29,398 nucleotides of DNA from Paenibacillaceae bacterium (lineage in GTDB: Bacteria > Bacillota > Bacilli > Paenibacillales > YIM-B00363): contig JAGWXQ010000001.1 of the NCBI GenBank assembly GCA_018969805.1, positions 1 to 29,398 on the forward strand. Reading direction: 5' to 3'. Of the stretch, positions 7,579 to 26,229 are shown piece after piece. The notes below the pieces were generated by a model. That model saw only the letters and a list, made by a program, of their open reading frames with translations, ran no database searches and was not told the DNA's origin. The position numbers and the translations under genes were made by a program. How positions within the stretch are numbered: position 1 is the stretch's first letter; each line of letters starts with the position of its first letter.

Positions 7579-9913
7579 GCGCGACGACCGTCACCCCATC
7601 TCCTCCTTCTCCATGGGCACCGAGCCGTACAGATGCGACACTGCGATGCGCCCGCACAAACTGCAACACCCGCGTACGCAACACACCTGTTCCTTTGCCA
7701 TGAATGATCGTCGCAAACGGAACACCGTCGCGGAGCACTTCATCGAGCCAACGGTCAATTTCCACCAACGCATCTTCGGCATTCATCCCACGTACGTCAA
7801 TGTGTGTGCGCACAGCCCGTTGCGCATCGCTGTGCGATGGGGGCCGTGGTGATTTGACCGACGGAGCTTGCAGTTGTTGCACGGACGCATCGGCCAATTG
7901 GTTTCGATGCGTTTTTGTTTTCATTACACCAATTTGAACGATCGCCTCGTCACCGTGTATGTCGACGATCGTACCACAAAGGCCGTGGGGAAGGACACGG
8001 ACGAGCGCACCGACACAAAACGCTGCTTGTTTGTGCTGCGACACGTCAGGGACGTCGTCCACAGCATCGTCCAATGCACGCACGTGCTTCCGAATGCGCG
8101 ATGCCCGCTCTTGCGCTTTTTCTCCCTCAATGTCCGCTTGCAACGCAGCAAGGACGTTTTTCGCTTCGTGCTTCGCTTGGGCGACGATGCGCCGTGCGTG
8201 CATGCGTGCGTCTTGAATGAGCTGGGCACGGGTCGCATGCAGCTGCTCTTGTAGTGCTTCGATGTCGCGTTGCCGCGCTTGTGCTTCTTCGCGCAAGGCG
8301 TTCGCTTCCTCGCGTGCCGTGTGTGCCTCTCTCTGGAGGCGATCCAGCGTGTCGATCATCTGATCGACGTGGCGGTCTTGCACGGTCAGCTGCGCGCGTG
8401 CATGCGCTGTGACCGCCTCAGGAAGTCCGAGGCGCGAGGCGATCGTAAGTCCATGGCTGCTGCCTGGCACGCCGATGCGCAGTGCATACGTCGGCGCAAG
8501 CGCATCTGGATCAAATGCCATCGAGGCGGTGATCGTGTGCGGTGCCGCATACGCATACGCTTTGACCGCGCGGTCGTGCGTCGTCGCAATGAGCGTGCTG
8601 CCGATTTTTTTGATGTAGTCAATAATCGCGATCGCCAACGCCGCACCTTCGGTCGGGTCTGTTCCTACACCGACTTCATCGAGCAATACGAGACTGCGCG
8701 AAGTCACTGCATGCAGCATCGCCACAATGTTGCGCATATGACTGGAAAACGTACTCAAATTATGGGCGATGTCTTGTTCGTCGCCGATATCGACAAACAA
8801 TGCGTCGATGTGTGCACACGAACTTCCTTCTTGTGCAGGGATGTACATTCCTGCATGTGCCATTGCGTGCAACAGCCCGACCGTTTTGAGCGTTACCGTC
8901 TTTCCCCCGGTGTTTGGTCCGGTAATGAGCATCGTGTCGTCGTCGTCGCCCAAAACGACATCGATTGCGACGACGCGATCGGGGGCAATGAGCGGATGCC
9001 GTGCACGACGCAGTGCGATGCGGCCACGGGGGTCAAGGTGTGGACGCGTCCCCCGAATCGCAGCTGCATACCGCGCTTTTGCACACCATACATCGATGTC
9101 CCCGATCGTACGGACGTCCGCGATGAGTGCTTCACCGACTTGTGCGATTCGCTCCGAACATTGCTGCAAAATACGCACGATCTCTTGTTGTTCCTCCACC
9201 TTAAGCCGACGAACATCGTTGTTTGCGGCGACGATCGCTTGGGGCTCGATGTACACCGTCGCGCCTGATGCCGACTGATCGTGGATGATTCCATCGAAAG
9301 AGGAGCGCGCTTCTGCCTTAATCGGCAACACAAACCGATCGTTTCGCACCGTAATGATCGGCTCTTGCAGCACCGTGCGAACGTGCTTATCGCGCAGCAT
9401 CGCTTCACACAGCGCGCGTACTGCGCGTTCTTTTGCGCGGATCGCATTGCGCACGCGCGCGAGTTGTTCCGATGCCTCATCGCGCACGTGGCCGTGTTCG
9501 TCAATGATCGTCCGCAAAAACGTCTCCATCGGCCGCCAATCGGACAAGGACGCGTATCGCGCGTGACACAACGGGGCATCGTGCTTGGCAACAAAACGAC
9601 CAAGAGCTGTACGCACACGCTGCATCGCTGCCAGCGTCGTACATACGTCGGCGAGCTGCTCTAGGGCGAGGACACCGCCGATCAACGCATGCGCCACACA
9701 AGCGGTCACGTCATGCACCTCATCAAACGACGGCAATCCGTGCATGGCGTACCATAATACCGCCTCGTCTGTTTGCGCAAGCAATCGTGGAGCGTCTTCG
9801 CTGCTTGGACGCACGACGTCCAACGCAGTTTGGCCCATCGGCGTTTGGGCATGTGCGCGCACGTGTTGGACAATGATGTCAAACTGCACTGCTTGCAGTG
9901 CTTTTTGTTCCAT
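7568..9913 (-). CDS. mutS2: Endonuclease MutS2 with C-terminal Smr domain
   Basis: IIHDQSASGATVYIEP, Walker A ITGPNTGGKT, LSTFSSHM, LLDEVGVGTDPTEGAAL, TTH, Smr IDVRGM...IIHGKGTGVLR...GGDGVTVV. Overlaps the convergent SDR gene by 11 nt. Confidence 0.95.
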   Translation of the reverse strand: MEQKALQAVQFDIIVQHVRAHAQTPMGQTALDVVRPSSEDAPRLLAQTDEAVLWYAMHGLPSFDEVHDVTACVAHALIGGVLALEQLADVCTTLAAMQRVRTALGRFVAKHDAPLCHARYASLSDWRPMETFLRTIIDEHGHVRDEASEQLARVRNAIRAKERAVRALCEAMLRDKHVRTVLQEPIITVRNDRFVLPIKAEARSSFDGIIHDQSASGATVYIEPQAIVAANNDVRRLKVEEQQEIVRILQQCSERIAQVGEALIADVRTIGDIDVWCAKARYAAAIRGTRPHLDPRGRIALRRARHPLIAPDRVVAIDVVLGDDDDTMLITGPNTGGKTVTLKTVGLLHAMAHAGMYIPAQEGSSCAHIDALFVDIGDEQDIAHNLSTFSSHMRNIVAMLHAVTSRSLVLLDEVGVGTDPTEGAALAIAIIDYIKKIGSTLIATTHDRAVKAYAYAAPHTITASMAFDPDALAPTYALRIGVPGSSHGLTIASRLGLPEAVTAHARAQLTVQDRHVDQMIDTLDRLQREAHTAREEANALREEAQARQRDIEALQEQLHATRAQLIQDARMHARRIVAQAKHEAKNVLAALQADIEGEKAQERASRIRKHVRALDDAVDDVPDVSQHKQAAFCVGALVRVLPHGLCGTIVDIHGDEAIVQIGVMKTKTHRNQLADASVQQLQAPSVKSPRPPSHSDAQRAVRTHIDVRGMNAEDALVEIDRWLDEVLRDGVPFATIIHGKGTGVLRTRVLQFVRAHRSVASVRLGAHGEGGDGVTVVALNV

Positions 9914-10007
9914 AATGTGGTCCTCCCTGAACGCATTGATCGATTATGCGCGGGGCATACTGCGCGTGCACCACAAGAAGAGTTCGTACGAAAGAGGAGG
10001 TTGGGAC

Positions 10008-10373
10008 ATGTCTTGGGTAGGACACCTCGTCCGCTTTGTCGTGGCCGCACTCGCGTTGCTCATTGCTGGTGCGATTGTCCCACAATTTCACGTCGGGGGC
10101 TTTTGGAGTGCCCTGCTGCTCGCACTGGCGATCGCTGTGCTCGGTTTTGCCATTGAAGGCATTTTCGGCAAACGCATCCAGCCATTCGGACGGGGCATCA
10201 TCGGTTTTGTCGTCAGTGCGCTCGTCATTTATGTTGCCCAATTTGTCATTGCCGGAGTATTCGTCACCGCACTCGGTGCGATCATCGCTGCCGTCGTGAT
10301 CGGGCTCGTCGATGTGTTTTTGCCGATGGCAAGCCCTTTTGCCCTCGGTCGCAAACCCCACCGCTCGACGTAA
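10008..10373 (+). CDS. Four-TM membrane protein, phage-holin-4/YvlD-like family
   Basis: RBS GAGGAGG before ATG 10008; hydrophobic 121-aa protein with VxGFWSALLLALAIAVL. No phage genes nearby. Confidence 0.75.
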   Translation: MSWVGHLVRFVVAALALLIAGAIVPQFHVGGFWSALLLALAIAVLGFAIEGIFGKRIQPFGRGIIGFVVSALVIYVAQFVIAGVFVTALGAIIAAVVIGLVDVFLPMASPFALGRKPHRST

Positions 10374-10409
10374 TGCCCCACCTTGCACGATCGTTTCTGG
10401 ATGGGGATG

Positions 10410-10438
10410 CACCGCTGTGCACACGCTGCACAGCGGTG
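10410..10438. terminator. Perfect 12-bp hairpin between the convergent holin-family gene and zapA
   Basis: CACCGCTGTGCA / TGCACAGCGGTG with a 5-nt loop; no clear U-tract. Confidence 0.5.
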
Positions 10439-10446
10439 TTGCGCGT

Positions 10447-11106
10447 TTACGCGTGCTTCGGCTGTGCGGTTTTGTTGTCCTCAAGCAGCGCAATCCAATC
10501 ATCAAAGTCTTGTTTCATTTTGGCATATTCTGCCTGAAGCTGCGCATATTTGTGCGCCAGCGTCTCCTCGTCTGGACGTTCCAGCAGTTCTGCTTGCGCA
10601 TGTGTCCCGACGTCGTCCACAATGGGCAATAATGTTTGTTGTTTCATGACGATGTGCGCTGCATTCGCATCAAGTGCAATGTCCTCAGTGAGGACGACGT
10701 GTGCATGGGGCGCATTGTGGCGCGATGCATGCTGTGCGAGCTGCTCTTCCAACCAATTGGTCCGCTCCAGCAACAGCTGAATTTCCTTTTCTTGTACACG
10801 CACTTTGTCTTCTGCCCGCTGCAAGACGTCGCGCACATCCGCACACACCGTCTGCATGTGCTGCCGCTCGGCTTCAGCAGTTTCTGCCTTAGAGCGCAAC
10901 TTTGCGTATTCTTCAGCAATGTGCAACAACGTCAGCACATACACCCGCTCGACATCCAGCTTCGGACTCATGCGTGCGGTCATATTGAGCTTATCGTTGA
11001 TCCACTGACTGAGTGCATGCAGCGCAGCCTGCGACAATGAACCGACAATTTTATAGGATTTCCCATAAATATCAATCGTAACACGATGCTTTTGTTCTGG
11101 TGCCAT
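10447..11106 (-). CDS. zapA: Cell division protein ZapA with long C-terminal extension (219 aa)
   Basis: RVTIDIYGKSYKIVG...INDKL...VLTLLHIAEEYAKL fits the ZapA domain; RBS GGAGG; lies downstream of pheT. Confidence 0.8.
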   Translation of the reverse strand: MAPEQKHRVTIDIYGKSYKIVGSLSQAALHALSQWINDKLNMTARMSPKLDVERVYVLTLLHIAEEYAKLRSKAETAEAERQHMQTVCADVRDVLQRAEDKVRVQEKEIQLLLERTNWLEEQLAQHASRHNAPHAHVVLTEDIALDANAAHIVMKQQTLLPIVDDVGTHAQAELLERPDEETLAHKYAQLQAEYAKMKQDFDDWIALLEDNKTAQPKHA

Positions 11107-11163
11107 CGCACGCCTCCTGTTTGGTCCAGAGTCCTGCCCACCAACGACAACCCGTGTGCGCCT

Positions 11164-13650
11164 TTACCGTTCGCGGATGCGCGCGCCGTGCTCCGATGCG
11201 AGCGCATGTACGACACAGGATACGGCGTGATCGACTTCCATATCGGTCATTGTCCGCCCAAAATGACGAAACACCAACGAAACGCCCGTGCTCTTTTCTT
11301 CCTCGGACAGCGGTGCCCCTGTATATACATCAAAGATCGAAGCCACAGCGAGCGTATCGCCTCCTGCCTTGCGAATCGTGCGCAACAGGTCATCCGCACG
11401 CACCGCCGTATGCGACACGACAGCAATGTCGCGCAGCGACGCTGGGAAACGCGAGACAGGCGTATACGTCGATTGCGACAACGCACACGCACGCATCGCA
11501 TCGACATCAAGCTCAAACGCAATCGCATCGTCGAGCCCATACACGGCTTGCACGTGCGGGTGCAGCTGTCCGATGCGCCCCAACGTGAACGGTTGTTCAT
11601 CGGAGTATGCCACGATGCGCGCCGTGCGGCCCGGGTGGTATCCTTCTATTTCCGTCGGGACAAACGCAATGCCAGACACCCCACACGCGATGCACAGTTG
11701 CTCAACGACGCCTTTACCTGCATAAAAGTCGGCGATCCGGTGCGCGCCTTGCCAATGCGCATCGCCCCACTGCCCCATCGCCAGCGCAGCGATCGTCACC
11801 TTTTCTATGATGTGATCGTTTTTTCCATAAACCGATGCAATTTCAAAAAACGCTGTATTGCGCTCATGGCGTGCAGCGTGCGCAGCAACCGTCTCGATTA
11901 GTGAAGGCAGTATGCTCGTGCGCAACACCGCGTGGTCGCTGCTCATCGGCATACGCACCCGCACGTCCGTCGCCCCATCAAGGACAAACGGCGCAATGCA
12001 AGCGGGCCGCTCGAGGGGTACGAGCGAATACGTCACCGCCTCATCATAACCCCACGCCGTAAGTACTGCCCGCGCCGTTTTGCGCAATCGCTGTGCAGAA
12101 GTCCAATGCCCTGCCGTTTGTACGCCGTGGACAGGCGTATGCGGAATATCGTGGATATGCAAGCGCGCCACTTCTTCAATGACATCGATAGGAAGGCGTA
12201 CGTCCATACGCCACGGAGGTGGAGTACATCGAATCGACCGTACATCCGTGTGTGCGACATCAAACCCAAGCCGCTCCAGAGACGCACACACGGCGTGTTC
12301 GGAAAACGGCACCCCAATCACGTCACACAAGTCGTCGATCGACATCGCAATCGGTTGTTTCGCCTCGATCGTCTCTCCAACGCGCCGCATCGCACAGACA
12401 ACGACATCCGGTTGGCATGCTGTGATCAGCTGCACCGCCCGTTGCAGCGCGGCAATCGCCTGCTGAGGGGCAATACCCCGTTCAAAACGGGCACTCGCTT
12501 CCGTCTTCACTCCATGACGGTGAACCATGCGTGCGACAACGTCCGATGCACATTGTGCGCTCTCAATACAGATGCGCGTCGTGCGTTCCGTCACTTTGGT
12601 GTGTTCCCCACCGATGACCCCCGCGAGCGCGATCGGGCCCTGTTCATCGGCAATGACGATGTCGGATGCATCCAGCACGCGATCCACACCATCGAGCGTC
12701 GTCATGCGCTCTCCACACACTGCGTGCCGCACCACAATCCGATCACCGAACAATGCGTCCGCATCGTATGCGTGCATCGGTTGTCCAAGCTCCAGCATCA
12801 CATAGTGCAACACATCGACGATCACGTGCACCGGCCGCATGCCGCTGTCGATGAGCCTGCGTTGCAACCATATAGGAGACGGACGAACGCGCACGCCGTG
12901 CAGTGCGATCAGCGCATATGCCCGCACCGCCTCCGTTGTCTTCTCGATATTTTTGGATGCAGGCAACGTCGGCTCCACCCACCATGACGACGTGTATTCG
13001 ACATGGTGTGGCACATCGCGATGGACGACTTCCGATGCCCACAACTGCGTCGGATCCAAAAAACTCGTCAACCGCATCGGCAACGTACACACCGCCGACA
13101 CTTCCCGCGCCAACCCAATCCAATGCATCGCATCGGTACGGTTTGGCGTGACGCTCAGCGCAAACACCACATCCCCACATCCAAGCAATGCCGCAACATC
13201 CATCCCAAGTACGAGCTCCGCTGTTGGCTCCGTGGACAGCACCATGATGCCCTCCTGCGGTCCATCGTCGAGCCCAAGCTCCGACGCAGAACAAATCATC
13301 CCATCCGAGCGTACACCGCGCAGCGTCACTGCACGAATGACGAGCCCACCCGGTAGGTGTGCCCCGATGCACGCGACAGGCACGTACTGCCCTGCATCGA
13401 CGTTGGACGCACCGCATACGATCGTCACGTGCGCCTTTGCACCGATATCGACGGTACACACCGACAGTTTGGTTGATTTGGGATGCGTATTTTTTGCCAC
13501 GACGCGCCCTACGACGACACCGTGCACAGGAGGGCGATGGACGACACGCTCTACTTCAATGCCTGCCATCGTTAATTGTGCGGCGAGCTGCTCCGGCGTA
13601 CATGGATCGAGTGCGACGTAGCGCGCCAAATGTTGCCATGAACTATACAT
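11164..13650 (-). CDS. pheT: Phenylalanine--tRNA ligase beta subunit
   Basis: LTMAGIEVE, TIVCGASNV, LRGVRSDGMICSASELG, VTPNRTD, ELGQPMHAYD, ASARFERG, DVIEEVAR, SRFPASLRDIA; RBS AAGGAG. Confidence 0.95.
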   Translation of the reverse strand: MYSSWQHLARYVALDPCTPEQLAAQLTMAGIEVERVVHRPPVHGVVVGRVVAKNTHPKSTKLSVCTVDIGAKAHVTIVCGASNVDAGQYVPVACIGAHLPGGLVIRAVTLRGVRSDGMICSASELGLDDGPQEGIMVLSTEPTAELVLGMDVAALLGCGDVVFALSVTPNRTDAMHWIGLAREVSAVCTLPMRLTSFLDPTQLWASEVVHRDVPHHVEYTSSWWVEPTLPASKNIEKTTEAVRAYALIALHGVRVRPSPIWLQRRLIDSGMRPVHVIVDVLHYVMLELGQPMHAYDADALFGDRIVVRHAVCGERMTTLDGVDRVLDASDIVIADEQGPIALAGVIGGEHTKVTERTTRICIESAQCASDVVARMVHRHGVKTEASARFERGIAPQQAIAALQRAVQLITACQPDVVVCAMRRVGETIEAKQPIAMSIDDLCDVIGVPFSEHAVCASLERLGFDVAHTDVRSIRCTPPPWRMDVRLPIDVIEEVARLHIHDIPHTPVHGVQTAGHWTSAQRLRKTARAVLTAWGYDEAVTYSLVPLERPACIAPFVLDGATDVRVRMPMSSDHAVLRTSILPSLIETVAAHAARHERNTAFFEIASVYGKNDHIIEKVTIAALAMGQWGDAHWQGAHRIADFYAGKGVVEQLCIACGVSGIAFVPTEIEGYHPGRTARIVAYSDEQPFTLGRIGQLHPHVQAVYGLDDAIAFELDVDAMRACALSQSTYTPVSRFPASLRDIAVVSHTAVRADDLLRTIRKAGGDTLAVASIFDVYTGAPLSEEEKSTGVSLVFRHFGRTMTDMEVDHAVSCVVHALASEHGARIRER

Positions 13651-13672
13651 TGCGATGCTCCTTCACGATGGT

Positions 13673-14710
13673 TCATAATCGCATACGAAATTGTTGTAAA
13701 AAAGCGCGGTCATTTGTATAAAAATGACGGATGTCTTCGATGCCATACCGCAGCATCGCAATCCGCTCGACACCAACACCAAACGCAAACGCCCGAACAA
13801 CGGTCGGATCGTACCCGCACCGCGCGAGCACGTCCGGATGCACCATCCCTGCACCGAGCACTTCGACCCACCCGGATTGCTTGCACACGCGGCATCCTAC
13901 ACCCCCACATACCGCGCACGATATATCGACTTCGACGCTCGGCTCCGTAAACGGGAAAAAGCTCGGCCGCAAGCGCACGCGCGAATGAGATCCAAACATG
14001 GTACGCGCAAAGTGCGCCAACGTGCCCTTCAAATGCGCCATGCTCAGATGTGTATCGACGACCAAACCTTCTACTTGCATAAACTGATGCGAATGCGTCG
14101 GATCGTCGTCGTCACGGCGATACACTTTCCCGGGACAAATGATTTTGATCGGTATCGCGCCCCCACACCGCTGCATAGTCCGAATTTGTACTGGCGACGT
14201 CTGTGTGCGCAACAATGTCGTCTCGTCGATATAAAAAGAATCATGCATCGCCCGGGCAGGATGATGCTCCGGAATGTTCAACGCTTCAAAATTGTAGTAG
14301 TCCGTCTCAACTTCCGGTCCTTCTGCAACCGTATAACCCATCCCCACAAAAATATGCTCAATTTCCTCGATGACGTGCATCAATGGATGAACCGCACCCA
14401 AACGCTCCGTCCTGCCTGGAAGCGTCACATCGATCGTTTCTTCCGCGAGTTTTCGGGCAATGCCCTGCGCCACGATGTCGTCGCGCTTCGCCATGATTGC
14501 CGCTTCAAGCGCATGCTTCACATCGTTGATCTGCTTTCCGATGCGCGCACGCTGCTCTGGATGCTGCTGCGCCATCTCCCGAATCGCAAGCGTCAGTAGT
14601 CCTTTTTTTCCTAAATACCGTACGCGTACTGCGTGCAGCGACGGTTCATCTTCACAACGACGAACATCCAGCAGCGCTTCTTCACCCAATGCATCCAATC
14701 GAAAATCCAT
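13673..14710 (-). CDS. pheS: Phenylalanine--tRNA ligase alpha subunit
   Basis: [87 protein letters not shown] 14710 follows a G-rich RBS. Confidence 0.96.
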
Positions 14711-14738
14711 GCCCCCCGCCCTTCCTCTGCACATTGTT

Positions 14739-14843
14739 CATACGCATCCCCTATAAACACATATATCCAGAGGGCTGCCTTTTGCTCGATCGCAAGAGGC
14801 GTTTTTGTGAAACGGATATATGGATTGAAATACGGATGCGTAT
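14739..14843. repeat. Copy 1 of a ~100-nt structured element with terminal inverted repeats (pheS leader)
   Basis: 10-bp inverted repeat ATACGCATCC/GGATGCGTAT, nested CATATATCC/GGATATATG, inner 9-bp hairpin at 14777-14800; colinear with the copy at 16262-16360. Confidence 0.85.
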
Positions 14844-14869
14844 CCTACACAGTCATGCGATCATACAAC

Positions 14870-14908
14870 AAAAAAGCCTGCACACCGAGCACACACGCAC
14901 GGTACAGG
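14870..14908 (-). terminator. Intrinsic terminator downstream of tRNA-Gly
   Basis: Minus strand CCTGTACCG...CGGTGTGCAGG imperfect stem, then C and TTTTTT. Confidence 0.55.
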
Positions 14909-14931
14909 TCGCGTACTGCCTAGCGGGAAAA

Positions 14932-15002
14932 AGCGGGTGATGGGAATCGAACCCACGCCACCAGCTTGGGAAGCTGGAGTTCTGCCATTGAACTACACCC
15001 GC
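14932..15002 (-). tRNA. tRNA-Gly (CCC), CCA not encoded
   Basis: GCGGGTG acceptor stem, anticodon arm CCAGC-TTCCCAA-GCTGG, T-loop TTCGATT, U73 discriminator. Confidence 0.95.
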
Positions 15003-15030
15003 GCGTTTCACCTTGACGTTGATCGTACTG

Positions 15031-15059
15031 ATTATACTGTATGAGAAACACGAACGCAA
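15031..15059 (-). promoter_or_regulatory. SigA promoter of tRNA-Gly
   Basis: TTGCGT - 17 nt - TATAAT on the minus strand. Confidence 0.65.
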
Positions 15060-15114
15060 TTGACGCACGCAAAAAATTTTCCGAATACAAAAAATTGACG
15101 CGGGCAAAAACGTC

Positions 15115-15142
15115 TTGACTTTATGCTGATTCCGTTTATAAT
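15115..15142 (+). promoter_or_regulatory. SigA promoter of the 53-aa peptide gene
   Basis: TTGACT (15115-15120) - 16 nt - TATAAT (15137-15142). Confidence 0.65.
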
Positions 15143-15175
15143 AATATTACAACCTAAGATAAAGGAGAGGAGTAT

Positions 15176-15337
15176 ATGCGAAATCGGGCTTTGCGCAAGA
15201 AAGTGTTTATATTATTGATGGTCTCGTTGTTGCTGCTCTCTTTCCAATCATTACAAGGATCGCTTGCTTCCGCAGGGTCCATATCCAGCTCCTCGTCTTG
15301 GGTTGGCACAGCTTCAGTGGTTTCTTTTCTGCCATAA
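15176..15337 (+). CDS. 53-aa secreted peptide precursor of unknown function (not in the ORF track)
   Basis: MRNRALRKKVFILLMVSLLLLSFQSLQGSLASA-GSISSSSSWVGTASVVSFLP; strong RBS AAAGGAGAGGAG; basic n-region, hydrophobic h-region, A-S-A cleavage motif; terminator 3 nt after the stop. Confidence 0.72.
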   Translation: MRNRALRKKVFILLMVSLLLLSFQSLQGSLASAGSISSSSSWVGTASVVSFLP

Positions 15338-15339
15338 AT

Positions 15340-15367
15340 ACCGATCACACGTTGATCGGTTTTTTTT
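15340..15367 (+). terminator. Intrinsic terminator after the peptide gene (may also serve convergent purU)
   Basis: ACCGATCA / TGATCGGT 8-bp stem, 5-nt loop, then TTTTTTT. Confidence 0.85.
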
Positions 15368-15374
15368 CGTTCCC

Positions 15375-16247
15375 TTATCGAAAAACAACGGTTTTGTTTC
15401 CAACGACGAGCACGCGGTCATCGAGGTGCCACTGCACAGCGCGGGCGAGCACAGTGCGCTCGACGTGTTTGCCAATGCGCTTTAGTGCTTCCAAATCGTC
15501 GCGGTGGGTCACGCGTTGGACATCTTGTTCAATAATCGGCCCTTCATCAAGGACGTTGGTCACATAATGCGCCGTCGCCCCGATCATCTTCACACCACGA
15601 TCAAGCGCTTGGCGATACGGGTTGCCTCCTACGAAAGCGGGCAAAAAAGAGTGATGGATATTGATCATTTGTTGTGGATACTGCGCCACAAACGTCGGGG
15701 ATACAATTTGCATGTAGCGTGCCAATACGACGGTGTGCACGCCATGCGTTTCCAGTACCGCAAGCTGCTGTCGTTCGGCTGCTTCCTTGTCATTGATCGG
15801 GATATGCACAAACGGAATGCCCATCGGAGCGACGCAATGCCGCAACGTGTCATGGTTGCTCACGACGACCGCAATGTCCGCATCGAGGTCTCCCGCTTGC
15901 CACAGCCACAGCAACTCCAACAAACAATGGTCTTCTTTGGTTACGAATATCCCAATCCTTTTTTTCTGAGCCACAAGCGAACATTGCACATTCATATCAT
16001 ACGTTTTTGCGATGCGATCAAAACGATGGCGCATGTCCTCCAATCGGCTCGCAGCGTGCGCACATTCAAATACGATGCGCATAAAAAACTGCCCTCCAGA
16101 TGGATCAAGAGAGTACTGATCCGATTGCACAATATTCGCTCCTTCCGTCGCCAAAAATTGTGCAACGGAAGCGACGATTCCAAGCCCATCTGGGCACGTA
16201 ATGCGCAGACGCACGCGCTCCAGCGCACCAATTTCTTGCTCCCGCAT
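15375..16247 (-). CDS. purU: Formyltetrahydrofolate deformylase
   Basis: ACT domain (ITCPDGLGIVASV, FFMRIVF) and formyltransferase domain (VVSNH, VLARYMQIVS, INIHHSFLPAFVG, GVKMIGATAHYVT, DEGPIIEQDV). Confidence 0.95.
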   Translation of the reverse strand: MREQEIGALERVRLRITCPDGLGIVASVAQFLATEGANIVQSDQYSLDPSGGQFFMRIVFECAHAASRLEDMRHRFDRIAKTYDMNVQCSLVAQKKRIGIFVTKEDHCLLELLWLWQAGDLDADIAVVVSNHDTLRHCVAPMGIPFVHIPINDKEAAERQQLAVLETHGVHTVVLARYMQIVSPTFVAQYPQQMINIHHSFLPAFVGGNPYRQALDRGVKMIGATAHYVTNVLDEGPIIEQDVQRVTHRDDLEALKRIGKHVERTVLARAVQWHLDDRVLVVGNKTVVFR

Positions 16248-16261
16248 GCCCCTTATCCCCC

Positions 16262-16360
16262 CATACGCATCCCCTATCGAAACCATATAGGGCTGTCTTT
16301 TGCTTCATTACTACAGGCGGTTTTGTGAAACGGATCGATAAAGTGAAGGACGGATGCGGA
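16262..16360. repeat. Copy 2 of the ~100-nt structured element, filling the nfo-purU spacer
   Basis: CGCATCC/GGATGCG inverted ends; blocks of 16/16, 15/16, 20/21 and 9/9 identity to copy 1, with equal-length 10- and 14-nt spacers. Confidence 0.85.
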
Positions 16361-17482
16361 TCACAACCCGATTGCGCTTTGCCCACGATCCGCACCAGAT
16401 GCGAGCCAGCACACGAGCCGCTCATATCCGTCGCGCTCCGTCCATCGTTCACCGACCCCAGAAGCAGCGACGATGTCGTACAATTGTTCGAGTGGCTCTC
16501 GTGGATCCGCTTTGCGTGCCTTTGCATGTGCGCGTGCATCCCACATGCCTACGATTGAAGCGGGTGTGTAGCCAGCACGACAAAGCACGTCGTCGATCCG
16601 CTGCACGTCGTCCATAAATTGTGTCCCCATTCGTTGGGCAGTTTCGTTCATGAGCATGGCGATTTCCACGCGGTACATCGGAAACGTTTTGTCCGATCCG
16701 ATCCACGGAGTCTCCAAAATCATGGGGATGTGTTGCAACCTTTGGTCGGATGCAATGCGCGCAAGTGCGGCAAAGCCGATATACCCACTCCCCAACGGTG
16801 CATGGCGGTCTTTTTTTGCACCGCGCGGGTTTTTGCTGTCATTGAGATGGACCACCGCAAGACGATCGCACCCAATCGTCTGATCCAACTGCGCCAGTAC
16901 GCCATCCCAATCATGGACGATGTCGTATCCCGCGTCGTGCACGTGGCACGTATCCAAACAAACCGACAAACGCTGTGGATCAGGAACAAGCTCCATAATG
17001 CGCGCGATCTCCTCAAACGATCGTCCAATTTCCGTACCTTTTCCCGCCATCGTCTCTAAAGCAATCGAAACGTGCTCTGTTTCTGCGAGCACGATGTGCA
17101 GCCGCTGTGCAATGCGCGCAATGCCGGACTCCACATCGGTTTCTGTATAGGCTCCAGGATGCAGCACGATCGTATCGCATCCGAGTGCCTGCGTGCGCCG
17201 CACTTCTTCTTGCAAAAACGACACCGCCAATTGCCACACACTGTCTTTATGCGACGCAAGATTGACAATGTACGGCGCATGGACGATGGCATGTGCCATA
17301 TGGGCATCGTCCATCATTTTGCGTGCGACCACGACGTGTTGCTGCTCGATCGGTTTGCGCGTCGTATTTTGTGGGGCACCTGTGTATACCATAAACGTGC
17401 TGCTTCCGTATGAACACGCCTCCTGCACAGCACCGATCAACCCTTGGTTGCCAAACGAAACGTGCGACCCAATATAGCGCAT
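16361..17482 (-). CDS. nfo: Endonuclease IV (AP endonuclease) with C-terminal extension
   Basis: IGSHVS, VYTGAPQNTTRK, VHAPYIVNLAS, VLHPG, IALETMAGKGTEIGRSFEE, CLDTCHVHDAGYD, HLNDSKN, KDRHAPLGSG, ILETP; RBS AAGGAGG before ATG 17482. Confidence 0.93.
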   Translation of the reverse strand: MRYIGSHVSFGNQGLIGAVQEACSYGSSTFMVYTGAPQNTTRKPIEQQHVVVARKMMDDAHMAHAIVHAPYIVNLASHKDSVWQLAVSFLQEEVRRTQALGCDTIVLHPGAYTETDVESGIARIAQRLHIVLAETEHVSIALETMAGKGTEIGRSFEEIARIMELVPDPQRLSVCLDTCHVHDAGYDIVHDWDGVLAQLDQTIGCDRLAVVHLNDSKNPRGAKKDRHAPLGSGYIGFAALARIASDQRLQHIPMILETPWIGSDKTFPMYRVEIAMLMNETAQRMGTQFMDDVQRIDDVLCRAGYTPASIVGMWDARAHAKARKADPREPLEQLYDIVAASGVGERWTERDGYERLVCWLASGADRGQSAIGL

Positions 17483-17544
17483 GCCGACTCCTCCTTGCCC
17501 AATCTCCACTGTGTGTGCTACGATGTATTGTAGAGGTGGTATAT

Positions 17545-17970
17545 ATGAACCATTTTTGGGGCTGGTTTCTTGTTGCATGGGGATTTTTCTTAATATTGTT
17601 TATGGCTATTGGCGGTTTTTTTATGTTTCGAAAATTTCTGAAAGTATTGCCAAAAAAGGACGGAAAATCGACGCTCGACTGGCAAAACCATTGGGTGGAT
17701 TCCAGCCGCCACTTATGGACCGAAGAAACGAAAGCGTTGCTCAAAAAACTCGTACTGCCGGTACCCAAACCGTTTCGCGACATCGCCCAACACGCCATCG
17801 CAGCGCGCATCGGGCAACTGGCACTCGAACGAAACGTTCCGCACATTACCCAACAATTGTGCATCGAAGGATACATTTTGGCAACCCCAAAACGCGACCA
17901 TCGATACATGCGCACGTTTCTCGCCAAAGAAGGCATCGACATCGCGCCATTTCGCCACTTGCTCTCCTAA
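17545..17970 (+). CDS. DUF2621-family protein with N-terminal TM helix
   Basis: MAIGGFFMFRKFLKVLPKKDGKSTLDW...LVxPVPxPFRDIA...GYILATPKRDH; RBS AGAGGTGG. Confidence 0.8.
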   Translation: MNHFWGWFLVAWGFFLILFMAIGGFFMFRKFLKVLPKKDGKSTLDWQNHWVDSSRHLWTEETKALLKKLVLPVPKPFRDIAQHAIAARIGQLALERNVPHITQQLCIEGYILATPKRDHRYMRTFLAKEGIDIAPFRHLLS

Positions 17971-17989
17971 TGCACCTATGCATGCGCGC

Positions 17990-18030
17990 AAAAAAACACA
18001 TACGCCTGCTCGCATCAGAGCGCGTATGTG
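17990..18030 (-). terminator. Intrinsic terminator after the IS630-like HTH gene
   Basis: Minus strand CACATACGC...GCGTATGTG 9-bp stem with inner GCTC/GAGC, then TTTTTTT, 12 nt after the stop. Confidence 0.75.
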
Positions 18031-18042
18031 CGTGCACACGAT

Positions 18043-18525
18043 CTACTCTACGGGTTTGTTTGCCATCGTGCGCTTCTTGAGCAATACTTTGCGCACCGTC
18101 TGATGGGAAATGCTGTCCACATATTGGAGCTGTACCGCATGCTCCGCAAGCAACTGCAACGTCCAACGTTTCTTTCCTTGCGGTGGAGGAGACTGACGCA
18201 AAGCCAAAATTTTCTCCTCAACTTCTTCCGTTACTTTTGGGGGATTGGGCGGGGAAGAGCGCTGCTTCCGAATGATCGCGCCTTCAATGCCGCTGGTCGT
18301 ATACGCTTTGCGTACCGCATAGATCGTGTTTGTATTCACATCCAACCGCTCTGCAATCTCTCGCTCGGTCAACGTTCCCCCAGAACGATTTTGATCTGCT
18401 GCAAGCAGCACTTGTGCACGACGAATCGTACGGGCCGGAGAACGGCCTTTTGTAATGATCTTCTTTAATTCTTTTTGCTCTTCTGCACTCAGGCGTACAG
18501 GGTATTTGACAGGTCTCATCGTCAT
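18043..18525 (-). mobile_element. IS630/Tc1-family transposase N-terminal DNA-binding (HTH) part only; no catalytic domain
   Basis: YPVRLSAEE...RRAQVLLAAD...EIAERL...GIEGAIIRK...PPKV...PPQGKKRWTLQLLA...ISHQTVRKVL is the typical IS630 N-terminal pattern. No DDE frame follows. Start may be 18519 (better RBS spacing). Confidence 0.75.
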
Positions 18526-18620
18526 CCCCTCTCTTCCAACTCAATTTCGTTCGTGCAACAAAACCATGTGCACAACAAGTACAACCCCAAACGGTATCAT
18601 CGACACACGAGAAAGCAACA

Positions 18621-18702
18621 TGCGGTCGGAGAGATTTGAACTCTCACGCCTTGTGGGCACTGCCGCCTGAAGACAGCGTGTCTGCCGTTCCACCACGACC
18701 GC
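18621..18702 (-). tRNA. tRNA-Leu (CAG), long variable arm, CCA not encoded
   Basis: GCGGTCG acceptor stem, anticodon arm CTGTC-TTCAGGC-GGCAG, T-arm GAGAG-TTCAAAT-CTCTC, A73. Confidence 0.95.
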
Positions 18703-18752
18703 ACTGTGTACTACACCAACTGTTTATAGAGCAAACAATATGGGATATTTTT

Positions 18753-18781
18753 ATGATACCATAAACCCGAACAACTGTAAA
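18753..18781 (-). promoter_or_regulatory. SigA promoter of tRNA-Leu
   Basis: TTTACA - 17 nt - TATCAT with an extended TG. Confidence 0.65.
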
Positions 18782-19081
18782 GTGGTGCGGGAATTTTTTT
18801 TACACGTTCCATCCGTTACCTCCACAATTCAGAACGGACATTATTTTGCCAAAAAAAGCGGTTTTCATATAAAAATTAATTATTTTTTATGATTGCCTTG
18901 TGTGTGATGCAGCGATCTGGACGCGGCTTTTTTTTCACAGCACGTTCCTATCCACTGCGCATTGCTTTGTCCATTTTTTTAGAAACACCGCACCATACAC
19001 CACATGGAAGCGCAGCAGTGCCGCGTCCGTGATCATTTTGCGGCAACCGCTGAACATGGGGTGCATCGATCGATTGCACAT

Positions 19082-19110
19082 TTGCATTACCGACGCATAT
19101 GCGCTATACT
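19082..19110 (+). promoter_or_regulatory. SigA promoter of tRNA-Arg (and probably clpP)
   Basis: TTGCAT - 17 nt - TATACT, 13 nt before the tRNA. Confidence 0.65.
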
Positions 19111-19123
19111 CAGAATGCTGTGT

Positions 19124-19195
19124 GCGCTCGTGGTCTAAAGGATACGACGCAGGCCTCCGGAGCCTGAGATCGGGGTTCGATTCCCTGCGAGCGCG
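19124..19195 (+). tRNA. tRNA-Arg (CCG), CCA not encoded
   Basis: GCGCTCG/CGAGCGC acceptor stem, anticodon arm CAGGC-CTCCGGA-GCCTG, T-loop TTCGATT. Confidence 0.93.
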
Positions 19196-19224
19196 TCGTT
19201 TTTACGGGATAAGGGGGGTTGGGC

Positions 19225-19803
19225 ATGAGTGTCATTCCTATGGTCGTCGAGCAGACGAATCGCGGTGAGCGCGCGTACGACATTTATTCCCGGTTGCTCA
19301 AAGACCGCATTATTTTTCTCGGCACACCGATCAACGACATCGTCGCCAACAGCATCATCGCGCAGCTTCTTTTCCTTGCAGCCGAAGACGCGGAAAAAGA
19401 CATTCATCTGTACATCAACAGCCCTGGCGGATCGATTACCGCAGGTATGGCGATCTACGACACGCTGCAGTACATCAAGCCCGCGGTATCGACGATTTGT
19501 GTAGGTCTTGCTGCCTCGATGGGTGCGTTTTTGCTCGCATCCGGGCATCCAGGAAAACGATTTTGCTTGCCAAACGGCGAAGTCATGATCCATCAGCCAC
19601 TCGGAGGTGCTGAAGGTCAGGCGTCCGACATTGCGATTCGCGCCAAGCGCATCATCGGCATGCGCGACAAACTCAACCATATTTTGTCAGAACGAACGGG
19701 TCAGCCGCTCGCGCGCGTTGAAAAAGACACCGACCGCGACTATTTTATGAACGCCGAAGAAGCAAAAGCGTACGGCATCGTCGATCGGGTCATCGTCTCG
19801 TAA
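19225..19803 (+). CDS. clpP: ATP-dependent Clp protease proteolytic subunit
   Basis: [32 protein letters not shown] (Ser), MIHQPLGG (His), DTDRDYFM (Asp). Confidence 0.97.
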
Positions 19804-19850
19804 ATCAATGCAATCGAATGTCCCCTATTCCTTCTGCTTTTTATAAAATG

Positions 19851-19892
19851 AATCCCGTATTGCACGATCCACCGTGCAATACGGGATTGTTT
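19851..19892. terminator. Perfect 16-bp hairpin between clpP and the convergent 638-aa ORF
   Basis: AATCCCGTATTGCACG / CGTGCAATACGGGATT, 6-nt loop, followed by GTTTT on the plus strand. Confidence 0.8.
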
Positions 19893-19923
19893 TGGGTTTG
19901 ACTTCCCTATAGACACGAAACAA

Positions 19924-21840
19924 CTATTTACTGAGTAAAAAATGAATGATCTCTTTCTTTTTATTGGGATCTTTTATTTTTTGTACAATCGTCGCGAATG
20001 CTGTTGCGGCTTCGGATTCGTTTGAAATCCATCCGCTTTTTGGGAGCGCTTGTTCATGTCCTACCTGAGCATCGTTTCTTGCAGCAAGACTTTGTAAACG
20101 CAAGACAAAATTCATTGATTTTTTTGAAAAATATTGCTCATACATGTTCTGTATCGGTATGCCCCATTTGTGCTGTATTTTCATTACATCAAATATTGTC
20201 AACGATCTTTTTTCACCACGATGTCGTTTTTGTTCGTGGTTGTTGTGCATCGATTCGTCCATGGACGATAACCTAAGATTTGATGCATGTGCCTCGTTTG
20301 GTGCATGCGTACTTTCCACAATAAGATGCACGCCAAGCTTTGTTGATACGGATTCAAGTGCATCATACATTACCTCTATTTCTTGCTGCGGAACTTTTGT
20401 CGTAGCACTGATCAAGCTCGATATAAAAATCGATAATGAACTTCCTGCGACAGCACCATGTGATGCAAGCGCAGCCCCCCGTGCAATAAGATAAGGACTC
20501 TTATTTTTTAATGTATCAAGAGACACTTGTGTCGTTACTTCTGCAAATACAGCCGTTAGCAAATGGATTGATGAAACCAACGTAAACTTACCTGCTTTTT
20601 TTGTAATTTCTGTATTTAATTTTTCTATAATTTTTAATGGCAGGTTACTTATAATTGGCGAAATCTTCTCCAAAACTCCCGGTACGAAATGGTGCGCCCA
20701 ATCAGCGAGTTTTAGTGCCCCAACAACCGAAACAATATGAACGGCATCTTCTAAAAACGGGGTTTTAATAAAATTCGACCCTGTCACCTTATCATAAACA
20801 CGTGTCGCTATGGAAATACCGACACCCCCTGGAATTCCCGCACCCGCAGACGCAATGACGACAGAAAGATGATTTGTGATCTCAATCAACTTGTTCATTG
20901 TTTGTCTATTGTCCAATTCGGTCGTTTCCAATGTATCCCCAATTTTTTGAAGTGTGATCAACACGTTTAAGAGTACCGCATTTGCTGCAACGCGCGAAAC
21001 GTCTTGGTGCAGTAAACTTTCAAAAGTTTTGAGATATGCATCAAACGCACTGAGTTCGTCTGCCAAACTTTTATTCGTAATGCGCAACAACAAACTGGTG
21101 CCCGGCATAAAGTGATTTCTCCATTTTTTGAGGCGTTCTAAAATAAGCGTGTATTCGACATCGTTTCCTAAATTTATGCCCGTTCTTTCCATTGCTCGGG
21201 ATACAGTACTTTGAACGACAAGTTCTGCAACGCCTTGTGTAGTGACATACAGTTCGCTCGCGCGAATATGTTGATCCTGTACCACACTTTTTGCGAATAG
21301 CCGCAGTTCATCTCGATCGTTCGCCGCTTCAATCTGCAAAGGAATCAGAAACGTCCGCCCTTTATTCGTTTGAAGAACCGCTCTTTTTCCTTCCAGATGC
21401 AGGTAACGCAATGCGTAGCGATCGTTATCTAAGACCCCCACACCGTCTCCGTGTTTGTACATGCGTGTTGACGCACCAGACTTTTTGGGCGAAAATAACT
21501 GCCCATTCATTGCACGGTTTCCCCTCATCTGCCCAATCCACGTTTGCACATCATGTAAAGAATGAACGTAGTCCGGAATATCATAACAATGCGCGCGTGT
21601 ACATAATGTCGTCTTTGAATCGACAACTACAGCGACCAAGTCTCCAGATTCATTATTCTTACGCAGAGCAAACCTTTGTCCATGCGCGATGGGCAATGAC
21701 GGCGCCTTGGCATGAACTACGTTCGTACCAACTACACGTAATGGCATAAATGCGAGGGCAATCAAAATCAGAATGGATGCCCGCTTACGATAATGAATAA
21801 AAAGACGATTGTACGCGTGGACATCGGGATGCATCGACAC
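19924..21840 (-). CDS. Hypothetical 638-aa protein with a predicted signal peptide; no family recognised
   Basis: Long uninterrupted ORF in visibly AT-rich DNA; AAGGAG 11 nt before GTG 21840; RKR-ASILILIALAFMPL-RVVGTNVVHA N-terminus. Confidence 0.8.
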   Translation of the reverse strand: MSMHPDVHAYNRLFIHYRKRASILILIALAFMPLRVVGTNVVHAKAPSLPIAHGQRFALRKNNESGDLVAVVVDSKTTLCTRAHCYDIPDYVHSLHDVQTWIGQMRGNRAMNGQLFSPKKSGASTRMYKHGDGVGVLDNDRYALRYLHLEGKRAVLQTNKGRTFLIPLQIEAANDRDELRLFAKSVVQDQHIRASELYVTTQGVAELVVQSTVSRAMERTGINLGNDVEYTLILERLKKWRNHFMPGTSLLLRITNKSLADELSAFDAYLKTFESLLHQDVSRVAANAVLLNVLITLQKIGDTLETTELDNRQTMNKLIEITNHLSVVIASAGAGIPGGVGISIATRVYDKVTGSNFIKTPFLEDAVHIVSVVGALKLADWAHHFVPGVLEKISPIISNLPLKIIEKLNTEITKKAGKFTLVSSIHLLTAVFAEVTTQVSLDTLKNKSPYLIARGAALASHGAVAGSSLSIFISSLISATTKVPQQEIEVMYDALESVSTKLGVHLIVESTHAPNEAHASNLRLSSMDESMHNNHEQKRHRGEKRSLTIFDVMKIQHKWGIPIQNMYEQYFSKKSMNFVLRLQSLAARNDAQVGHEQALPKSGWISNESEAATAFATIVQKIKDPNKKKEIIHFLLSK

Positions 21841-22326
21841 GGTGCGTTCAGCTCCTTCGCATTAAACAGCATCAGGAAAAATACAACACAGCGGTCTTGG
21901 ACCCACACACTCGGTCAAGACGCAACCATGAATTCCTAATTATGTTTTTTTATTATCATTATATAATGAAAAACGAATATTTAAAACATACTTTTGTGAC
22001 GTTTTTATGTCTTTTGGATCACGCCCGCCGACGATGGTAGACTACACATAGTACAATAATGGAAAATAATATATGTAAACAATGGTGTTTATAATAATGA
22101 ATATTTCAATAAATAAATCATTTTTAGAAAAACTTCTTCTTCTTTCTCGGCGCATACAGCGATCTGGATCACTTTTTTAATAGGGTATTCGTATTGTATT
22201 CGTGACATTCGTAAAGTGGAGCAACGATCTGTCCACCCTATTACGAAAGAGAAACGATTTTTCCGCGTACAGGGAACATCTGAACATTGTGAAGCGAATT
22301 CTCGTACGAATCGCCTATTGAAAATT

Positions 22327-22362
22327 AAAAAACGCCTTTTTTGCTTCGCAAAAGGCGTTTTT
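22327..22362. terminator. Bidirectional intrinsic terminator closing the cys/sir operon
   Basis: AAAAACGCCTTTT..GC-TTC-GCAAAAGGCGTTTTT with A/T tracts on both sides, ~47 nt after the sirC stop. Confidence 0.8.
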
Positions 22363-22409
22363 GTGTAGCCAGGCGATGTATTGCAGTGCGGAACCGTATT
22401 CCTGTGCAC

Positions 22410-23030
22410 CTACGCATCCACATACGGTGCGACATACTGCAACCATGCGGCGTGTGCATCCGCACGCACCGCATGCGCGACATCGTCGTGCAACCACGAT
22501 CGGTGCACGCGCGTGCGCTCAGATGTGGGCAAGTGCGCTGTCTGGGCTCGTGCTTGTATGAGAAAGTGCACATATTGTGCGTATTGTTCGTCGTACTGCG
22601 CTGCGATCGCATCGCGCACGTGCGCTGCCAGTGCAGGAAAGCCCCCTGATGTCCCTACAGCGACGTGCAGTGCGCCCCGGCTCATGCTTGCCATGCCATA
22701 AAACGTGCACAGCGACGCATCATCGACGACGTTGACCCACTGCGGGGGCCGCACAGAACGTGCGATGGTAGCGTTTGCTGTGCGGTCTGACGTCGCTGCA
22801 AAAATAAGTGCTGCATCGCGCGCATCGCCTTCATGATACACCCGCTCGTGGACGACGATGCGCCGTTCTTGTGCCCACGCATGCATTTGCGCGCTCATCT
22901 GTGGCGCGACGACGACGACGTGCGCACCGCCGTCGATGAGTTGGCTTACTTTGCGCGTCGCGATCGTTCCCCCACCGACGACGAGGCAACGCACACCGTC
23001 GAGGCGCAGCTGTACACACAGCTCACCCAT
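22410..23030 (-). CDS. sirC: Precorrin-2 dehydrogenase (SirC / CysG N-terminal-like)
   Basis: LVVGGGTIATRK, VVVVAP, LIFAATSD, WVNVVDD, AVGTSGGFPALA. Start 23030 (alternative GTG 23039) overlaps the hemD stop. Confidence 0.85.
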   Translation of the reverse strand: MGELCVQLRLDGVRCLVVGGGTIATRKVSQLIDGGAHVVVVAPQMSAQMHAWAQERRIVVHERVYHEGDARDAALIFAATSDRTANATIARSVRPPQWVNVVDDASLCTFYGMASMSRGALHVAVGTSGGFPALAAHVRDAIAAQYDEQYAQYVHFLIQARAQTAHLPTSERTRVHRSWLHDDVAHAVRADAHAAWLQYVAPYVDA

Positions 23031-23844
23031 CGCCGCCACCGTCGTGCGTCAGTGCTTGTGCGAGCGCGACGACCATCGCCCCCATCCGTTCGTGGGGGGG
23101 GGCGACGATGCGCTGTACGCCCCACTCCGTCAGTGCTTCTTTTGTCACGTGTCCGACTGCGGTCGCGTATACATCGCCAAAAGCGTCCACGAGTGCCTGC
23201 TCTTGCTGACACGCCAGTGCGTGCGCAAACAAAAACTGCACTTGTGGCACGCTCGTAAAACATACGGCATCGACATCCCGCTGCATGATCGCTTCCATCG
23301 CCTCGTGCAATACGTCAGATGGCGGACTTTCATGCACATACGGCATCAGCGGAGTCCATATCCCACCGCGCGCACGAACAAACTGCTCCAGCGCACGCGC
23401 TTGTGTCCCATGCAGCTGCACGAGCACGGGTGCGCCGTCCCACACCACGTCGCCCATCGCCTCCATAAGCCCACGCGTCGATCCATCCGCATCGGTCACA
23501 TACGGCACGACGTCCAACGTCCTGAGTGCCGCCCGCGTCTTATACCCGCGCGCTGCGACGCGGTGTGTGCGCATCCACGATCGCCACTGCTGCGCAAACC
23601 CATGCAGCTCCATCGCCTCATCGACGGCACGCACGCCCATCCCTGTCGTCCAAATGCTCTCACACATGCCGCGATCGATCGCATCGCAGACGACATCGAC
23701 GATGCGTTGCGCATCGACAAATGACGTCCCTTGCAGCGCACACGCGCGCACGTGTGCCCCTTGATGCTGCAACAACGCAACCATTTCCTCCACTTTGCGC
23801 GAGGCAGCGAGCATGACGGTGCGTCCTGCAAGCCGCGCACTCAT
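23023..23844 (-). CDS. hemD: Uroporphyrinogen-III synthase
   Basis: LAGRTVMLAASRK, WTTGMG, VAARGYKT, VLVQLHG, DAVCFTSVPQV, AVGHVT, ERMGAMV; ATGA overlap with the cysC stop. Confidence 0.8.
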   Translation of the reverse strand: MSARLAGRTVMLAASRKVEEMVALLQHQGAHVRACALQGTSFVDAQRIVDVVCDAIDRGMCESIWTTGMGVRAVDEAMELHGFAQQWRSWMRTHRVAARGYKTRAALRTLDVVPYVTDADGSTRGLMEAMGDVVWDGAPVLVQLHGTQARALEQFVRARGGIWTPLMPYVHESPPSDVLHEAMEAIMQRDVDAVCFTSVPQVQFLFAHALACQQEQALVDAFGDVYATAVGHVTKEALTEWGVQRIVAPPHERMGAMVVALAQALTHDGGGDG

Positions 23845-24428
23845 GTGATCCAACCGCGCAGCGCGTCCTTGATCGTGTGTACGCACTGCTGCAATGACCC
23901 CGCCTCGGTATCAACGACGACGTTTGGTGCCTCTGGAGGCTCATACGGGGACGATATGCCAGTAAAGTGGGCGATTTCGCCTTTGACCGCTTTCGCATAC
24001 AGCCCTTTGGGATCTCTGTCCATGCACGTTTGTATCGCGCACTGTACGTATACTTCTATCCATTGGTGTTCCCCAATGATCTGTTTTGCCCGTTCGCGGT
24101 CCTCACGAAATGGGGAAATAAATGCTGTAATGACGATGAGTCCCGCATCGGAAAACAGTTTGGCGACTTCCGCGATGCGGCGAATGTTTTCTTGGCGGTC
24201 TTCTGCGGTAAACCCAAGTCCGTTGTTCAGTCCGTGGCGGACGTTGTCCCCGTCAAGGACGTACGTGTGGGTTCCTTCTTGAAACAGTGCCGCATCGAGT
24301 GCATTGGCGATCGTCGATTTGCCCGATCCGGACAAGCCCGTGAGCCACACGACACCGGATTTGTGTCTGTAGCGCGCATTGCGATCCGATCGCGTCACTG
24401 ACTGCGGGTGCCACGTGATGTGGTTCAT
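23841..24428 (-). CDS. cysC: Adenylyl-sulfate kinase
   Basis: [66 protein letters not shown]. Confidence 0.96.
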
Positions 24429-25501: not shown

Positions 25502-25524
25502 GTTCGTATACCGCTCCTTGTTGT

Positions 25525-26211: not shown

Positions 26212-26229
26212 CGCACGCACCTCCTCTCG

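Follow-up and report, generated by a model that had tools for sequence, protein, structure and literature searches.

A genus-restricted family of miniature palindromic repeats, very probably transposable-element relics, includes the paired elements before pheS and purU in a Paenibacillaceae genome

The window analyzed here is a stretch of 29,398 nucleotides from a Paenibacillaceae bacterium (assembly GCA_018969805.1, contig JAGWXQ010000001.1, positions 1 to 29,398), in which a first reading of the letters had noticed the same structured element twice, once just upstream of pheS and once just upstream of purU. We find that the two elements are very probably members of a genus-restricted family of miniature, noncoding, palindromic relics of transposable elements, resembling MITEs (transposable elements of miniature size with inverted repeats). 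The family has the anatomy of a MITE, is dispersed over the genome, occupies different sites in a sister species, and has decayed without structural constraint; it is new and confined to one genus, and the kind of element to which it belongs is already known. The original prediction had offered a choice between a lineage-specific MITE or REP family and a leader RNA. Of these, the MITE family stands, with 153 loci in both orientations, a presence in the sister species and differing sites there, and the REP and leader-RNA readings fall.

The two elements (copies 1 and 2; Table 1) are about 105 nt long each, homologous and colinear, with 82% column identity and a BLAST E value of 5.8e-16, and the shared blocks lie where they had been described. 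The inverted repeat at their termini, CGCATCC/GGATGCG, is present as it had been given, although the ends had been drawn two bases too short on each side, the conserved ends being TGATAC...GTATGA. Calling the copies upstream of pheS and purU is correct when the sequence is read on the minus strand, where both genes lie, and not otherwise. By gene calls and Pfam, pheS (tRNA-synt_2d), purU (Formyl_trans_N and ACT), and the gene that the original prediction had named nfo (AP_endonuc_2) flank the copies, all on the minus strand. In this reading a tRNA-Gly(CCC) gene and its terminator lie just upstream of copy 1, the 3′ end of which is 28 nt ahead of the pheS ATG at 14710 with its ribosome-binding site (RBS) GAGGAAGGG, and copy 2 ends about 13 nt ahead of the purU ATG at 16247. 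Copy 2 does fill the whole gap between nfo and purU, as the nfo stop codon TGA at 16361-16363 is the 5′-terminal TGA of the copy. Beyond what had been noticed, the window holds two further, diverged copies and the genome about 150.

For the genome-wide census we used the window's own assembly, 1.44 Mb in 244 contigs and 91.5% complete; this assembly and that of the sister species are both fragmented metagenome-assembled genomes (MAGs) of about 91% completeness. The BLASTN search of the copies against the genome that had been proposed as a check gave, with copy 1 as the query, 43 matches on both strands, and three rounds of nhmmer gave 175 matches, which reduce to 153 distinct loci, with 92 of these close to full length. 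These loci make up 0.96% of the assembly and are found on more than 100 contigs. As 23 of the 153 lie within 150 nt of a contig end, the true copy number is probably higher. No other dispersed repeat family was found when the genome was compared with itself. The distance of just 1.4 kb between copies 1 and 2 and their shared orientation would suit a duplication confined to the window, or a likeness due to chance. The census rejects this explanation, to which we give almost no credence: each of the two copies is nearer to the family consensus than to the other, the family is spread over more than 100 other contigs, and the tRNA and genes between the two copies are not duplicated.

A sequence-only model of the family, R1, was built from 32 aligned copies (alignment A3). 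The consensus is an imperfect palindrome of 106-109 nt with 44% G+C, consisting of two imperfectly complementary arms of about 30 nt each, with conserved terminal sequences ATACGCATCC/GGATGCGTAT and a consensus fold of -46 kcal/mol. Conservation runs exactly from TGATAC to GTATGA, the flanks outside being random, and the parent insertion sequence of such a family would be expected to end in TGATACGCATCC.... Two subfamilies, A and B, have identical arms and differ in about 15 central bases; among 71 copies sorted by these bases, 28 belong to A, 24 to B and 19 to neither, and 54 of the 71 have a run of at least five A next to the central hairpin (model orientation). The element is too short for any open reading frame (ORF) beyond its own length, being noncoding and without a transposase gene. 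The median identity of the copies to the consensus is 80%, and the closest pair in the genome shares 86.5%. Of the properties by which MITEs are recognized, the family shows small size (about 50-800 bp in MITEs), terminal inverted repeats, many dispersed copies, and filled versus empty sites.

A BLAST search among 40 relatives gave matches in one other genome. When 185,579 species genomes, one per GTDB species, were scanned for a 19-base exact pattern, hits were obtained in the sister MAG ("MAG: Paenibacillus sp. isolate P_PAEN", JAULZZ01, 1.7 Mb) and, as three single hits, in unrelated phyla, the latter by our estimate being about the number expected by chance. The sister genome contains at least 152 matches to model R1, and a search of 149 further genomes from the order yielded nothing but one marginal match at E = 8e-4. 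Other members of the host's family have genomes of 2.7-7.2 Mb, and the repeat thus marks a small-genome genus. Contigs near-identical to window positions 8000-27999 are present in the metagenome runs of several studies, from freshwater and from soil, indicating that this small-genome lineage is environmentally widespread. A related second family of repeats, about 105 nt long and with the different ends ATACTAAACACTG...CAGTGTTTAGTAT, is present in the sister genome as well (L048:1060-1164 on contig C44 and L033:1645-1734); it scores weakly with the profile of the first.

The two species differ in the sites that are occupied. In the sister genome, the spacer between pheS and the tRNA-Gly gene is about 125 nt long and holds the tRNA terminator alone, with no element. 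Of the distinct sister-genome sites with both flanks mapped in the window's assembly, 12 of 14 are empty in the latter, and the two co-occupied spacers, nfo-purU and C225/L069, are the chance expectation at a spacer occupancy of 9.7%. The copies in these two spacers have an identity of 0.50-0.52, against a median of 0.63 for random cross-species pairs, and each is nearer to the consensus of its own genome. We therefore rejected ancestral orthologous copies as an explanation for the shared spacers, since chance occupancy accounts for them and the copies are no more alike than random pairs. Synonymous sites are saturated between the two genomes (proportion of synonymous differences, pS, 0.70-0.82; 0.70 in pheS and 0.73 in purU), the copies of the sister genome, too, have a median identity of 80% to their own consensus, and the two consensus sequences are 84% identical. 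We infer a separate amplification of the family in each of the two lineages, long after they split, followed by a long period of inactivity.

In the mechanism that we propose, a transposase recognizing the arms would have spread the units in trans, and these would have landed where insertion was tolerated, between genes and often at stop codons or just before RBSs, and would since have been decaying with no constraint on base pairing. Copy 1 would have been inserted after the split from the sister species, and copy 2 would form the intercistronic spacer of nfo and purU and supply the nfo stop codon. The position of the copies before pheS and purU would be incidental, and any effect on the neighbors, as a hairpin in the transcript or as an antisense terminator, is probably a by-product.

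The gene context of the copies, taken from crude longest-ORF calls, includes all intergenic classes in both orientations. With the orientation of the upstream and downstream gene given relative to the element, 29 loci are co-oriented in tandem with their neighbors (same/same), 29 lie between divergent genes (opposite/same), 23 between convergent genes (same/opposite), and 21 are antisense to both (opposite/opposite). Gene 5′ ends face the element's 3′ end in 70 cases and its 5′ end in 61, and for gene 3′ ends the numbers are 53 and 57; the median distance to gene starts is 127 and 122 nt for the two orientations, and upstream gene ends, divided by element orientation, number 39 and 41, with no bias. 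The genes beside the copies, dnaJ, nfo and methionine gamma-lyase among them, have no functional theme in common. Insertions within genes, similar to those of the Rickettsia RPEs, were rejected, as the strongest candidates turned out to be over-extended ORFs or ORFs without a Pfam match; one seemingly in-gene copy is actually in the 5′ untranslated region (UTR) of dnaJ. In about 15 cases, that of nfo included, the stop codon of a neighbor coincides with the element boundary, and some TAA stops are read on the opposite strand from the terminal TTA of the element, a pattern that suggests insertion at or beside stop codons.

This distribution bears on the other half of the original prediction, that the elements might be a new cis-regulatory leader RNA. 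Such a leader, a riboswitch or one that binds a protein or a tRNA, would control genes, pheS and purU among them, from the 5′ UTR. Copies 1 and 2 do point the same way as the gene downstream, with 13-28 nt left to its start codon, folding of copy 1 together with its flank is better than that of shuffled sequence (z = -2.8), and pheS lacks the T-box leader usual in Bacillota, for which Rfam has no match here or in the sister species. On the other hand, for copy 2 as it stands in the mRNA, folding is no better than that of shuffled sequence (z = +0.3), and the sister's pheS leader is free of the element. Among the 153 loci are 23 lying between convergent genes and 21 that are antisense to both neighbors, gene starts show no preference for one element orientation, and the neighboring genes have no functional theme in common. 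Numerous copies in random orientation are what had itself been named as the observation that would speak against a leader, and the 153 loci are of this kind. The search of the window against Rfam gave no family match at the gathering score or at E <= 10, just tRNAs and noise.

The structure itself was examined for covariation, which had been suggested as a check and which was not found. RNAalifold reported 0 consensus pairs on 32 copies. Among 71 profile-aligned copies, 72.1% of the cells of the consensus hairpin were paired, compared with 71.9 +/- 0.4% with the partners shuffled among copies, and double changes numbered 59 against 52 +/- 5.6 in the shuffles; our own pair count found no covariation against shifted partners either. 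Pairing at the level of the shuffles indicates that the palindrome was inherited from the founder sequence and is not maintained. As the elements show neither a restriction to 5′ UTRs, nor covariation, nor conservation upstream of orthologous genes, we reject a gene-specific leader RNA on the combined results of context, structure, Rfam and orthology, and consider it very improbable.

Several results weigh against the reading of the family as relics of transposable elements, and the target site is among them. TGA is found in direct orientation at both element ends in about 70% of the copies and could be a 3-bp duplication or a part of the element, no duplication being demonstrated. Duplications of 3 bp with the sequence TNA are typical of certain groups within the IS5 family. 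Outside the conserved ends there is no enrichment of TA (T 37% and A 27% at the two positions just outside), and no variable direct repeat was found farther out from the ends. From one end to the other, the middle base of the terminal TGA shows weak covariation (4 copies have TT where 1 is expected; log-likelihood gain 3.1). The inner TA (left T 100%, A 54%; right T 93%, A 97%) could also be the duplication, which would leave unexplained the nonpalindromic conserved TGA outside it on both sides. The spacers of the two species are too diverged for the filled and empty sites to give a junction at base resolution, and the genome has no second repeat family to reveal nested insertions. The earlier description of the elements as TA-flanked and linked to IS630/mariner enzymes is thus not established, as the ends carry TGA in direct orientation, TA is not enriched outside them, and the genome has no IS630 catalytic domain.

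To the same side belong the results on transposases, on movement and on constraint. The domains DDE_3 (IS630-type) and Y1_Tnp (PF01797) are absent from the genome. Just one pair of half-elements, on contig C48, has a suitable spacing, and what it encloses is a methionine gamma-lyase gene; the remnants of IS5-family/DDE_Tnp_1 elements have unrelated ends or none, the window's genome having only a partial IS5-family remnant; and unrelated ends, e.g., CTAGTAGCTCTTCAATTCT, are also found in those IS630 elements, from other Paenibacillales, in which the closest relatives (55-63% identity) of a helix-turn-helix (HTH) protein of the window are encoded. No presence/absence polymorphism was seen at the four sites in the window, all copies being carried, and none skipped, by contigs (Logan) of four independent freshwater/soil metagenome runs, and there are no near-identical pairs of copies that would be a sign of recent movement. 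Conservation per site in the arms is over-dispersed and correlated between the species (rho = 0.49), a correlation confounded by the use of a profile derived from the window's genome, and stop codons lie within 8 nt of the element's 3′ end in 11 of 39 cases and of its 5′ end in 4 of 41. Both could mean constraint on the copies, and neither is decisive.

An IS630-family enzyme is the leading candidate for the mobilizer, with a chance that we put somewhat short of even, and an IS5-family enzyme of the TNA-duplicating type is a second candidate. The sister genome contains a truncated IS630-family element of about 740 bp (L048:1286-2023, contig C44), which keeps 159 aa of an intact DDE half and has lost the HTH half. 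Its 33-nt imperfect terminal repeats are partly like the arms of the family and match one arm at 21 of 28 positions, with a P value of about 0.001-0.005 (0.0015 from shuffles and 0.0012 from 5,080 genomic windows, both before correction for four comparisons).

The HTH protein is encoded in the window at 18043-18525 on the minus strand, by a single-copy ORF of 160 aa with its own terminator. It consists of the IS630-type HTH region alone (HTH_32/HTH_23/HTH_29), and the NCBIfam IS630 model matches it at positions 1-107 alone. Both genomes carry an IS630-type HTH gene, and the HTH-only gene, beside tRNA-Leu, is syntenic in the sister, with a protein identity of 80% compared with 62% for pheS and 65% for purU. 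Within its family it is, like the repeat, found in this genus only. We regard the gene as a strong candidate for a domesticated DNA-binding domain of a transposase, and its link to the repeat as a lead.

Such a link would allow the repeats to be seen as retained because they are useful to the host, as binding sites of the HTH-only protein, one-directional terminators or hairpins for mRNA processing, and the whole as a domesticated system rather than decaying junk. The conservation of the single-copy, syntenic gene in the face of saturated synonymous sites points in this direction, as do the confinement of both the gene and the repeat to this genus within the family, the similarity of the two consensus sequences despite the divergence of the species, the conservation of the same arm positions in both, the keeping of a terminator-like one-strand run in 54 of 71 copies, and the more frequent adjoining of stop codons to that terminator-like side. 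However, insertion sites are not conserved between the species beyond the two of 14 that chance predicts, upstream gene ends show no orientation bias, base pairing is not kept beyond chance, and the IS630 elements in which the nearest relatives of the HTH protein are encoded end differently from the repeat; moreover, the correlation of arm positions is confounded because the sister copies were found with the profile from the window's genome, and the co-occurrence of the repeat and the gene rests on a single lineage. We consider a useful, retained system unlikely. The more specific idea, by which the repeat and the HTH-only protein would be a domesticated pair that has lost its catalytic half and keeps its DNA-binding half under strong purifying selection as a binder of some 150 copies, appears slightly more doubtful still. 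If true, the HTH-only protein could be a nucleoid-organizing protein, a global regulator or a silencer of transposition, and the pair would be a bacterial counterpart of the eukaryotic networks of domesticated transposases and MITEs, e.g., SETMAR with the Hsmar1 ends.

The reading as MITE-like relics agrees with what is known of bacterial MITEs (PMC10969869; Delihas 2008, PMC2229807). These are, as is the family here, with its length of about 106 nt, small and noncoding, with terminal inverted repeats and a fold-back shape; they exist in over 100 dispersed copies that lie for the most part between genes, frequently right upstream of a gene or at its end, fall into subfamilies, and vary in occupancy between related genomes. 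Unlike typical MITEs, the family has no demonstrated target-site duplication, no matching autonomous insertion sequence was found, and no recent movement was seen. The nearest named analog is RUP of Streptococcus pneumoniae (107 nt; context in PMC3049150), with a near-equal length, a host in Bacillota, and a copy number of similar order. For RUP and for the family here alike, an IS630-family element is the suspected source, in the present case from one remnant in the sister species. The ends of RUP resemble those of IS630-Spn1, and RUP duplicates TA. The conserved flanks here are TGA...TGA and not TA, and we note the likeness without claiming a relation in sequence.

Other palindromic families share some of these properties. 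Correia of Neisseria and ERIC/IRU of enterobacteria are likewise imperfect palindromes, of about 100-150 nt, and often stand immediately upstream of genes; they are co-transcribed with their neighbors, and the long RNA hairpins can be cleaved by RNases (PMC10969869). They belong to another phylum and have no sequence relation to the family, and a scan of copies 1 and 2 found no sigma-70-like promoter in either, but Correia and ERIC may serve as functional analogs for the effects of hairpins on transcripts. The pneumococcal SPRITE has a similar terminator-like core, a GC-rich hairpin with a T-run on one strand; in the family here, the terminator-like part sits inside long inverted arms and shows no bias relative to upstream genes. 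REP/BIME sequences with RAYT (PMC2817692, PMC3733652) are also high-copy extragenic palindromes, but REPs are 20-40 nt long with GTAG or CGTC heads and a Y1 transposase. The unit length of about 106 nt and the lack of a PF01797 match in the window's assembly do not fit this group.

Table 1. Members of the repeat family found in the window with the sequence-only model R1, and the central hairpin of copy 1
Feature	Coordinates	Strand	Scores and context
Copy 1, full-length, subfamily A	14738..14844	-	R1 102.3 bits, nhmmer 100.6 bits, best profile match; between tRNA-Gly terminator and pheS RBS
Copy 2, full-length, more decayed	16260..16363	-	R1 73.9 bits; 80% identity to family consensus; nfo-purU spacer, purU RBS right after 3′ end
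Copy 3, diverged, AT-rich, about 13 nt missing at 5′ end	22101..22194	+	R1 43.1 bits, E = 7e-13; nhmmer match too
Copy 4, diverged, perfect central hairpin between A-run and T-run	22301..22399	-	R1 35.3 bits, E = 2e-10
GC-rich hairpin at the center of copy 1, with TTTTTG after it on the plus strand	14776..14801	+	Consensus scan for terminators

All four members of the family in the window are listed in Table 1, copies 3 and 4 standing head to head about 105 nt apart. In copies 1 and 2, the central hairpin with its T-run resembles an intrinsic terminator on one strand alone, the one antisense to pheS and purU. Within 14710-14930 on the minus strand, pheS follows directly downstream of tRNA-Gly(CCC) and its terminator, with no sigma-70-like promoter found between the terminator and pheS.

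Two other kinds of repeats were noticed in the genome. Beside the partial IS5-family remnant on contig C185 (L085:1999-2191), direct repeats with CCGCACACGCGGGGAACAC stand about 61 nt apart and look like a short CRISPR array of type I-E style. A tandem repeat of about 37 nt, the unit of which starts GGTGCATTACGATCGCGACAATGC, is found at three contig ends (C110:1-119, C96:5538-5705, and C125:1-455); as its 37-nt units are identical and have no unique spacers between them, it is not a CRISPR array.

For pheS and purU, the finding removes the suggestion of a shared new riboswitch. For annotation, it means that about 150 stretches per genome in this uncultured genus are to be labeled as repeats and not as leaders, small RNAs or extensions of ORFs; several longest-ORF gene calls extend into copies, and at 23 contig ends the assembly is broken by the repeats. 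The family takes up about 1% of a 1.4-Mb genome and spread independently in two species long after their split, with no intact partner transposase visible. With a strongly conserved HTH-only derivative of a transposase encoded nearby as well, the genus offers a modest but workable case in which to ask how MITEs persist and are tamed in reduced genomes.

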